DNA of 39,093 nt, from the sequence record AY264775.1, one strand, 5' to 3'. Origin of the DNA: Escherichia phage T7. The translations under genes and the position numbers were made by a program. Shown here one piece after another: positions 5,631-16,673 of the stretch. The notes beneath the pieces are model-generated. The model saw only the letters and a program-made list of their open reading frames with translations. It was not told the DNA's origin and searched no databases. Positions within the stretch are counted from its first letter, which is position 1; every line of letters starts with the position of its first letter.

Positions 5631-6710
5631 ATGATGAACATTAAGACTAACCCGTTTAAAGCCGTGTCTTTCGTAGAGTCTGCCATTAAGAAGGCTCTGG
5701 ATAACGCTGGGTATCTTATCGCTGAAATCAAGTACAATGATGTACGCGGGAACATCTGCGTAGACAATACTGCTAACAGTTACTGGCTCTCTCGTGTATC
5801 TAAAACGATTCCGGCACTGGAGCACTTAAACGGGTTTGATGTTCGTTGGAAGCGTTTACTGAACGATGATCGTTGCTTCTACAAAGATGGCTTTATGCTT
5901 GATGGGGAACTCATGGTCAAGGGCGTAAACTTTAATACAGGGTCCGGTCTACTGCGTACCAAATGGACTGACACGAAGAACCAAGAGTTCCATGAAGAGT
6001 TATTCGTTGAACCAATCCGTAAGAAAGATAAAGTTCCCTTTAAGCTGCACACTGAACACCTTCACATAAAACTGTACGCTATCCTCCCGCTGCACATCGT
6101 GGAGTCTGGAAAAGACTGTGATGTCATGACGTTGCTCATGCAGGAACACGTTAAGAACATGCTGCCTCTGCTACAAGAATATTTTCCTGAAATCGAATGG
6201 CAAGCGGCTGAATCTTACGAGGTCTACGATATGGTAGAACTACAGCAACTGTACGAGCAGAAGCGAGCAGAAGGCCATGAGGGTCTCATTGTGAAAGACC
6301 CGATGTGTATCTATAAGCGCGGTAAAAAATCTGGCTGGTGGAAAATGAAACCTGAGAACGAAGCTGACGGTATCATTCAGGGTCTGATATGGGGTATAAA
6401 AGGTCTGGCTAATGAAGGTAAAGTGATTGGTTTTGAGGTGCTTCTTGAGAATGGTCGTTTAGTTAACGCCACGAATATTTCTCGTGCCTTAATGGATGAG
6501 TTCACTGAGACAGTAAAAGAGGCCACTCTAAGTCAATGGGGATTCTTTAGCCCATACGGTATTGGCGACAACGATGCTTGTACTATTAACCCTTACGATG
6601 GCTGGGCGTGTCAAATTAGCTACATGGAGGAAACACCTGATGGCTCTTTGCGGCACCCATCGTTCGTAATGTTCCGTGGCACTGAGGACAACCCTCAAGA
6701 GAAAATGTAA
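5631..6710 (+). CDS. 1.3: ATP-dependent DNA ligase (gp1.3)
   Basis: 359-aa ORF, T7 ligase. Confidence 0.95.
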   Translation: MMNIKTNPFKAVSFVESAIKKALDNAGYLIAEIKYNDVRGNICVDNTANSYWLSRVSKTIPALEHLNGFDVRWKRLLNDDRCFYKDGFMLDGELMVKGVNFNTGSGLLRTKWTDTKNQEFHEELFVEPIRKKDKVPFKLHTEHLHIKLYAILPLHIVESGKDCDVMTLLMQEHVKNMLPLLQEYFPEIEWQAAESYEVYDMVELQQLYEQKRAEGHEGLIVKDPMCIYKRGKKSGWWKMKPENEADGIIQGLIWGIKGLANEGKVIGFEVLLENGRLVNATNISRALMDEFTETVKEATLSQWGFFSPYGIGDNDACTINPYDGWACQISYMEETPDGSLRHPSFVMFRGTEDNPQEKM

Positions 6711-6715
6711 TCACA

Positions 6716-6742
6716 CTGGCTCACCTTCGGGTGGGCTTTTCT
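6716..6742 (+). terminator. Early terminator TE (intrinsic, for host RNAP)
   Basis: GC hairpin ggctcaccttcgggtgggc followed by ttttctg. Confidence 0.8.
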
Positions 6743-6763
6743 GCGTTTATAAGGAGACACTTT

Positions 6764-6919
6764 ATGTTTAAGAAGGTTGGTAAATTCCTTGCGGCTTTGG
6801 CAGCTATCCTGACGCTTGCGTATATTCTTGCAGTATACCTTCAAGTAGCACTAGTAGTAATTGGCGCTTGTTATTTAGCGACAGTGTGTGCTTGCGTGTG
6901 GAGTATAGTTAACTGGTAA
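6764..6919 (+). CDS. 1.4: gp1.4, small hydrophobic protein
   Basis: 51-aa ORF MFKKVGKFLAALAAILTLAY... Confidence 0.75.
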   Translation: MFKKVGKFLAALAAILTLAYILAVYLQVALVVIGACYLATVCACVWSIVNW

Positions 6920-6939
6920 TACGACTCACTAAAAGAGGT
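6917..6939 (+). promoter_or_regulatory. T7 promoter phi1.5 (variant: A at +1)
   Basis: taatacgactcactaaa|agaggt; every other class II promoter in the window has G at +1. Confidence 0.8.
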
Positions 6940-6946
6940 ACACACC

Positions 6947-7039
6947 ATGATGTACTTAATGCCATTACTCATCGTCATTGTAGGATGCCTTGCGCTCTAC
7001 TGTAGCGATGATGATGATATGCCAAATGGTCACGCTTAA
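6947..7039 (+). CDS. 1.5: gp1.5 (30 codons here; contains a GAT x4 run)
   Basis: ORF MMYLMPLLIVIVGCLALYCSDDDDMPNGHA. Confidence 0.7.
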   Translation: MMYLMPLLIVIVGCLALYCSDDDDMPNGHA

Positions 7040-7059
7040 TACGACTCACTAAAGGAGAC
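7037..7059 (+). promoter_or_regulatory. T7 promoter phi1.6
   Basis: taatacgactcactaaaggagac. Confidence 0.9.
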
Positions 7060-7064
7060 ACTAT

Positions 7065-7325
7065 ATGTTTCGACTTCATTACAACAAAAGCGTTAAGAAT
7101 TTCACGATTCGCCGTGCTGACCGTTCAATCGTATGTGCGAGCGAGCGCCGAGCTAAGATACCTCTTATTGGTAACACAGTTCCTTTGGCACCGAACGTCC
7201 ACATCATTATCACCCGTGGTGACTTTGAAAAAGCAATAGACAAGAAACGTCCGGTTCTTAGTGTGGCAATGACCCGCTTCCCGTTCGTCCGTCTGTTACT
7301 CAAACGAATCAAGGAGGTGTTCTGA
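7065..7325 (+). CDS. 1.6: gp1.6
   Basis: 86-aa ORF. Confidence 0.85.
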
Positions 7326-7904
7326 TGGGACTGTTAGATGGTGAAGTCTGGGAAAAAAACCCGCCAGTACAAGCAACTGGATGTATAGCTTGCTTAGAGA
7401 AAGATGACCGTTATCCACACATCTGTAACAAAGGAGCTAACGATATGACTGAACGTGAACAAGAGATGATCATTAAGTTGATAGACAATAATGAAGGTCG
7501 CCCAAATGATTTGAATGGCTGCGGTATTCTCTGCTCCAATGTCCCTTGCCACTTCTGCCCCACAAATAACGATCAAAAGATAACTTTAGGTGAAATCCGA
7601 GCGATGGACCCACGTAAACCACATCTGAATAAACCTGAGGTAACTCCTACAGATGACCAGCCTTCCGCTGAGACAATCGAAGGTGTCACTAAGCCTTCCC
7701 ACTACATGCTGTTTGACGACATTGAGGCTATCGAAGTGATTGCTCGTTCAATGACCGTTGAGCAGTTCAAGGGATACTGCTTCGGTAACATCTTAAAGTA
7801 CAGACTACGTGCTGGTAAGAAGTCAGAGTTAGCGTACTTAGAGAAAGACCTAGCGAAAGCAGACTTCTATAAAGAACTCTTTGAGAAACATAAGGATAAA
7901 TGTT

Positions 7905-13082: not shown

Positions 13083-13490
13083 ATGCGTGACCCTAAAGTT
13101 ATCCAAGCAGAAATCGCTAAACTGGAAGTTGAACTGGAGGACGTTAAGTACCATGAAGCTAAGACTCGCTCCGCTGTTCACATCTTGAAAAACTTAGGCT
13201 GGACTTGGACAAGACAGACTGGCTGAAAGAAACCAGAAGTTACCAAGTTGAGTCATAAGGTGTTCGATAAGGACACTATGACCCACATCAAGGCTGGTGA
13301 TTGGGTTAAGGTTGACATGGGAATTGTTGGTGGATACGACTACGTCCGCTCAGTTAGTGACAAATATGCACAAATGTCATACATCACAGATGTTACTCCA
13401 CGCGGTGCAATCGTTACCGATAAGACCAACATGATTCACACAGATTTCTTGACAGTTGTTTCATATGAAGAGATTGTTAAGTCACGATAA
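13083..13490 (+). pseudogene. 4.7: gp4.7 reading frame interrupted by an in-frame TGA at 13224-13226 (codon 48 of 135)
   Basis: ATG at 13083 after phi4.7 and an SD; same frame continues to the stop at 13488-13490; the track splits it into ORFs 12954..13226 and 13248..13490 in one frame. Confidence 0.8.
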
Positions 13491-16006: not shown

Positions 16007-16306
16007 ATGGCTATGACAAAGAAATTTAAAGTGTCCTTCGACGTTACCGCAAAGATGTCGTCTAACGTTCAGACAATCTTAGAGAAAGATATGCTGCATC
16101 TATGTAAGCAGGTCGGCTCAAGTGCGATTGTCCCCAATGGTAAACAGAAGGAAATGATTGTCCAGTTTCTGACACACGGTATGGAAGGATTGATGACATT
16201 CGTAGTACGTACATCATTTCGTGAGGCCATTAAGGACATGCACGAAGAGTATGCAGATAAGGACTCTTTCAAACAATCTCCTGCAACAGTACGGGAGGTG
16301 TTCTGA
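16007..16306 (+). CDS. 5.5: gp5.5, H-NS-binding protein
   Basis: 99-aa ORF MAMTKKFKVSFDVTAKMSSNVQTILEKDMLHL... Confidence 0.9.
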   Translation: MAMTKKFKVSFDVTAKMSSNVQTILEKDMLHLCKQVGSSAIVPNGKQKEMIVQFLTHGMEGLMTFVVRTSFREAIKDMHEEYADKDSFKQSPATVREVF

Positions 16307-16515
16307 TGTCTGACTATCTGAAAGTGCTGCAAGCAATCAAAAGTTGCCCTAAGACTTTCCAGTCCAACTATGTACGGAACAATGCGAGCCTCGTAGCGGA
16401 GGCCGCTTCCCGTGGTCACATCTCGTGCCTGACTACTAATGGACGTAACGGTGGCGCTTGAGAAATCACTGCTTCCGATATTCGCTTTCTGAAACGAATG
16501 AGAGGATGTGTCTAA
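16306..16515 (+). pseudogene. 5.7: gp5.7 (inhibitor of sigma-S RNA polymerase) interrupted by an in-frame TGA at 16459-16461 (codon 52 of 69)
   Basis: MSDYLKVLQAIKSCPKTFQSNYVRNNASLVAEAASRGHISCLTTNGRNGGA*EITASDIRFLKRMRGCV*. Confidence 0.8.
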
Positions 16516-16673
16516 TGTCTCGTGACCTTGTGACTATTCTACGCGATGTGTGAAACGATATACAGGGCTACATCGACTCTCTGGAACGTGAGAACGATAG
16601 CCTTAAGAATCAACTAATGGAAGCTGACGAATACGTAGCGGAACTAGAGGAGAAACTTAATGGCACTTCTTGA
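16515..16673 (+). pseudogene. 5.9: gp5.9 (RecBCD inhibitor) interrupted by an in-frame TGA at 16551-16553 (codon 13 of 52)
   Basis: MSRDLVTILRDV*NDIQGYIDSLERENDSLKNQLMEADEYVAELEEKLNGTS*. Confidence 0.85.

Follow-up and report, generated by a model that had tools for sequence, protein, structure and literature searches.

The promoter phi1.5 lies at its conserved position in the analysed DNA, with gene 1.4 on one side and gene 1.5 on the other, downstream of TE, the terminator for E. coli RNA polymerase. The DNA, referred to here as the window, is the whole stretch of 39,093 nucleotides of Escherichia phage T7 in record AY264775.1. The features at the locus are listed below.

6764..6919, plus strand: gene 1.4, whose stop codon TAA (6917-6919) is also the first three bases of phi1.5 (ORF list and annotation).
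6917..6939, plus strand: T7 class II promoter phi1.5, from -17 to +6, aligned to NC_001604 7761-7783.
6934, plus strand: +1 base of phi1.5, A for wild-type G (G7778A), in a 5'-AG context (whole-genome alignment).
6935..6939, plus strand: residual Shine-Dalgarno sequence of gene 1.5, GAGGT (predicted duplex with 16S rRNA).
6947..7039, plus strand: gene 1.5, 30 codons, with its ATG at 6947 (ORF list, alignment gaps and per-gene comparison).
7037..7059, plus strand: promoter phi1.6, unmutated, TAATACGACTCACTAAA/GGAGAC, where the slash, here and below, precedes +1 (sequence read and alignment).

Read directly, positions 6917-6939 are TAATACGACTCACTAAA/AGAGGT, with -17 at 6917, -1 at 6933 and an A as the +1 base at 6934. 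We aligned the window with the T7 reference NC_001604, with AY264774, the wild type of the laboratory behind the series, and with AY264776 (K115), AY264777 (isolate P) and AY264778 (P82). In this whole-genome alignment, window position 6934 corresponds to reference position 7778, the annotated start of phi1.5 (feature 'T7 promoter phi1.5' in NC_001604). The column holds A in the window and K115, and G in NC_001604, AY264774, P and P82. The preliminary description had read A instead of G at the start of phi1.5. This reading is confirmed at 6934, and the reference promoter, in which an A would have spoken against it, has G. The G at +1 that marks phi1.5 as a GTP-initiated promoter is therefore missing from the window. 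Wild-type phi1.5 in NC_001604 has the same sequence from -17 to -1 (TAATACGACTCACTAAA) and the same +2 to +6, overlaps the stop codon of gene 1.4 and the ribosome-binding site (RBS) of gene 1.5 in the same way, and differs from the window by the single base at +1. In total, 22 of the 23 positions agree, including the GAC specificity triplet at -11 to -9 and the AT-rich bases at -4 to -1. Since gene 1.4 ends at 6917-6919, the +1 base itself is intergenic. Scanning the window with the 23-mer T7 promoter consensus gave 9 matches at up to 3 mismatches against 0 expected, with class II variants besides. Therefore phi1.5 is no chance match, and the full set of T7 promoters marks the window as a T7 genome. 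The alignment identifies the A-bearing element as a mutant allele of phi1.5 and not as another element.

The promoters with which phi1.5 had been compared start with G as claimed: phi1.6 reads CACTAAA/GGAGACA, phi3.8 CACTAAA/GGGAGAC, phi4c CACTAAA/GAGAAAG and phi4.3 CACTAAA/GGAGACA. The nearest intact one is phi1.6, 120 bp downstream of phi1.5. The preliminary description had also named phi2.5 as the only promoter that naturally starts with A. The A start of phi2.5 stands, whereas its uniqueness does not, because the annotated +1 of phiOL (window 381; TATA/AGGAGAG) is likewise A, in the window as in the reference. Going by these annotated starts, two natural T7 promoters, phi2.5 and phiOL, have A at +1. 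Like mutant phi1.5, both phi2.5 (TATT/AGGGAA) and phiOL (TATA/AGGAGA) carry G at +2 after the A at +1. In addition, phiOL shares the A at -1 with the mutant promoter, whereas phi2.5 has T there. The initial transcribed sequences differ, with AGG in phi2.5 and phiOL and AGA in mutant phi1.5 (TAAA/AGA). Mutant phi1.5 therefore has neither the AGG start nor the naturally conserved A that characterize the phi2.5/phiOL type of A-initiating promoter. Its A appears to be a recent, mutagen-induced change, whereas the A of phi2.5 and phiOL is a conserved feature.

The A allele is narrowly distributed. Searched with 34 nt that have the A at their centre and cannot seed on the G allele, 50,697 phage records yielded no carrier beyond K115. 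Among natural sequences that match GACTCACTAAANGAGGTACAC, the +1 base is G in all 17, namely 12 IMG/VR stretches from 11 different contigs and five metagenome contigs, and these matches span several upstream contexts. In nature the +1 G is thus conserved, and only the laboratory lineage has the A. That none of the 17 natural relatives sampled departs from G implies that purifying selection acts on this base in nature.

Genome-wide, the window differs from NC_001604 by 414 substitutions, comprising 199 G>A, 191 C>T and 24 others, so that G:C>A:T transitions make up 390 of 414 (94%). The G>A rate depends strongly on the 5' neighbour, being 3.2% where it is a purine and 0.84% where it is a pyrimidine (odds ratio 3.9, P = 5e-33). 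Isolate P shares this 5'-purine bias. In the 5'-AG context, to which the +1 G of phi1.5 belongs, the mutation rate is 2.8%. A 5'-purine bias of this kind is typical of nitrosoguanidine. In T7 treated with this agent, G:C>A:T transitions dominate (PMC6042481; PMC5850294). The window shows both the dominance of these transitions and the preference for G after a purine, the signature of an alkylating agent of the nitrosoguanidine type. This spectrum identifies the window as a heavily mutagenised laboratory lineage of T7 and not a natural variant.

The closest record to the window is K115, which has the same A allele and lies 31 substitutions away across the genome; a 701-bp query around the site (6600-7300) matches K115 at 100% identity and wild-type T7 records at 97.6%. 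K115 differs from the window by about 1.4 kb of extra deletions (in the 0.5-0.7 and 5.3-5.9 regions), by five sites that are mutated in the window and wild type in K115, and by about 20 changes of its own. The window is separated from P and P82 by 665-680 substitutions, and P and P82 from the wild type by 305-320; P and P82 are an independent lineage. We presume that the window very probably represents isolate K from the Bull/Molineux series of mutation-accumulation lines. K115 would then be a later derivative of the window lineage, and both would trace back to the work on mutation accumulation by Bull et al. 2003 (J Mol Evol 57:241), which a passage in PMC4811365 cites as an example of the fixation of random mutations by bottlenecks.

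The window carries further lesions of various kinds. Through an 820-bp deletion (window junction 1734; reference 1759-2578), gene 0.6 has lost its end and gene 0.7, for the protein kinase, its first half, and gene 1.7 has an in-frame 3-nt deletion at window 7355. Premature stops interrupt gene 4.7 (13083-13490) at codon 48 of 136, gene 5.7 (16306-16515) at codon 52 of 70 and gene 5.9 (16515-16673) at codon 13 of 53. The 5.3-5.9 region has since been lost altogether in the derived isolate K115. Closer to phi1.5, a C>T change at window 6737 (reference 7581) lies seven bases upstream of the annotated terminator TE (GGGC followed by CTTTCTGCG), and it may weaken the termination of early transcripts at TE. 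In the terminal repeat, C>T changes occur in both copies at 36/38993 and 114/39071, as would be expected from the way in which the repeat is regenerated; at 123, a further C>T change affects the left copy alone. The left end of the window lacks the first 24 nt of T7, and odd transversions are found at 7 and 39093, which suggests lower sequence quality at the window ends.

The preliminary description had treated the phi1.5 change as a singular oddity. It is instead one of 390 G:C>A:T transitions, and its occurrence is expected by chance. The genome-wide rate is 390 in 18,926, or 2.06% per G:C site, and the 17 promoters contain 150 G:C sites between -17 and +6. Three promoter changes are observed in this interval, against 3.1 expected at a uniform rate and 3.4 expected at context-specific rates. 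They are the +1 change in phi1.5 and G>A changes at +5 of phi1.1A (5008) and of phi4c (11831). We tested the window promoter changes for depletion, as under purifying selection, and for excess, as under positive selection, and neither was significant. Fifteen promoters have G at +1, each time in the 5'-AG context; for this set, 0.42 G>A changes at +1 are expected, and one or more would occur with a probability of 0.35. The start-site change in phi1.5 is thus ordinary, and no commoner than chance predicts.

The promoter changes in isolate P are G>A at +1 and +5 of phi3.8, at +2 of phi9 and at +3 of phi2.5, together with C>T at -9 and -5 of phi10, which is a strong promoter. The excess of promoter changes in P is marginal (P = 0.046 for -17 to +6) and, given the multiple tests, was not counted as meaningful. 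In phi3.8 of isolate P, the same type of event as in phi1.5, a +1 G>A change in a class II promoter of the CACTAAA/G form, occurred in an independent mutagenised line; it differs from the phi1.5 event in affecting another promoter and in being accompanied by a second change at +5. Promoter changes of this sort are routine in these genomes.

The +1 base of phi1.5 is also the first G of the Shine-Dalgarno sequence of gene 1.5, which changes from AAGGAGGT in the wild type to AAAGAGGT. The preliminary description had suggested that the same base weakens this element, and the predicted pairing agrees. The match to the 3' end of 16S rRNA shrinks from 8 bp to 5 bp, leaving GAGGU, and the predicted pairing energy changes from -13.0 to -7.2 kcal/mol for read-through RNA and from -10.7 to -7.2 kcal/mol for RNA initiated at the promoter. 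Gene 1.5 is annotated as hypothetical in the reference. Its product in the window differs from that of T7 by an extra Asp in a DDD run, due to an in-frame 3-nt insertion at 7007-7009, and by His>Tyr and Asp>Asn substitutions, and the TAA that terminates the gene doubles as the first three bases of phi1.6. Weakening of an RBS is not peculiar to gene 1.5. Across the genome, 18 of 53 genes are altered between -20 and -4, and in 10 of the 18 the predicted pairing is weaker by 1 kcal/mol or more, among them gene 10, whose RBS (window 22114) changes from AAGGAG to AAGGAA. The Shine-Dalgarno sequences of genes 1.3, 4.5, 7.7, 13 and 18.5 are also weakened by G>A changes (5621, 12729, 18994, 26454 and 36065). 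Purine-rich RBSs and initially transcribed regions contain many of the 5'-purine-G sites that the mutagen favours.

In read-through RNA, positions 6880-6889 (GUGUGUGCUU) are predicted to pair with 6937-6946 (AGGUACACAC), sequestering the gene 1.5 RBS. The upstream arm would be missing from RNA initiated at phi1.5, and most natural relatives lack it or have another sequence in its place. We considered disruption of this RNA structure as an effect of the +1 change and dropped it, as the +1 base lies outside the main stem and the upstream arm is not conserved. The predicted pairing is probably incidental.

Taken together, we regard it as very likely that the A at +1 is a random G:C>A:T passenger mutation in a lineage that carries hundreds of alkylating-mutagen mutations, fixed by drift or hitch-hiking and not by selection. 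An alkylating mutagen would have led to the accumulation of hundreds of mutations in a laboratory T7 lineage; the +1 G of phi1.5 would have been mutated as one of the favoured 5'-purine-G sites, and fixation would have followed by drift or hitch-hiking. The A could also be an error of sequencing or assembly at 6934, and the ends of the window, with 24 nt missing and transversions at 7 and 39093, do point to likely quality problems. Position 6934, however, is internal and far from these ends, the type and context of the change match those of the 389 other transitions, and K115, a descendant that was deposited separately, has the A as well, all of which make an error highly improbable. That the window might represent a wild relative of T7 with a phi1.5 that starts with A we consider extremely improbable. 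The sequence itself, with a gene 1.5 product that differs from that of T7 at three residues, might suggest such a polymorphism, but a set of 414 differences in which G:C>A:T accounts for 94% and favours G after a purine so strongly does not resemble natural divergence. Furthermore, the A is otherwise carried by K115 alone, a laboratory isolate, and G is found in all 12 viral-contig and all five metagenome matches to the flanking pattern.

An adaptive or compensatory origin, in which the A was selected for lower or retimed output of phi1.5 and gene 1.5, or for initiation with ATP in place of GTP, we also consider very unlikely. K115 retains the A allele while five other mutated sites have returned to wild type, a +1 G>A change arose again in phi3.8 of the independent P line, and phi1.5 has responded to selection in other T7 experiments (PMC6171733). 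On the other hand, the parallel event affects a different promoter, and P and P82 retain G at phi1.5. The number of changes is in line with the neutral expectation, with a probability of 0.35 for at least one +1 change, the mutation sits in an ordinary mutagen context, and 17 of 17 natural relatives keep G. The retention of the A in K115 fits near-neutrality, and a benefit is also compatible with it. More specifically, it is very unlikely that the G>A change was kept as a useful, selected regulatory change that made phi1.5 an ATP-initiated promoter, rather than as a passenger. If this were true, ATP-initiated phi1.5 might tie early class II transcription to the ATP pool, permit 5' ends with adenosine cofactors of the NAD type, or down-tune gene 1.5.

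As a passenger, the mutation may still affect transcription. That T7 RNA polymerase favours G at +1 and +2, as the preliminary description had stated, agrees with the literature on its GTP or GG start (PMC3950665; PMC11617373). The polymerase reads the initiating GTP through R425/R632 and H784 (PMC11617373), and because this recognition is specific, the A allele of phi1.5 should start less efficiently. Replacement of the +1 G leads to 5' heterogeneity, and AGA starts from phi2.5 show about 7% heterogeneity (PMC3683919). Mutant phi1.5 would thus be expected to initiate at a lower level, from ATP at +1 (AGA) and/or from GTP at +2, with more heterogeneous 5' ends. A search by terms in Komura et al. 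2018 (PMC5937735) returned nothing on the +1 position.

The fitness cost of the +1 A is probably small, because phi1.5 is a weak class II promoter, read-through from upstream is expected, phi1.6 follows 120 bp downstream and gene 1.5 has only 30 codons. The promoters phi1.1A, phi1.1B and phi1.3 lie upstream of phi1.5, and transcripts from all three are expected to read through it. The strength of phi1.5 has been modelled as 0.01 of that of phi10 (PMC6938266). In T7 evolved with a polymerase of altered specificity, phi1.5 was the sole promoter changed in all four lines (PMC6171733), so a weakened phi1.5 could carry a real cost. Given these changes in evolved lines, and natural relatives that keep G, a small cost is plausible.

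The allele itself is known already. It is present in GenBank in K115, it belongs to a published and deliberately mutagenised T7 lineage, and it affects a very well-characterised promoter. As these lineages show, T7 tolerates promoter and RBS mutations of this kind. They provide a ready collection of viable T7 point mutants in promoters and RBSs, including the +1 changes in phi1.5 and phi3.8, the +2 change in phi9 and the change in the gene 10 RBS.
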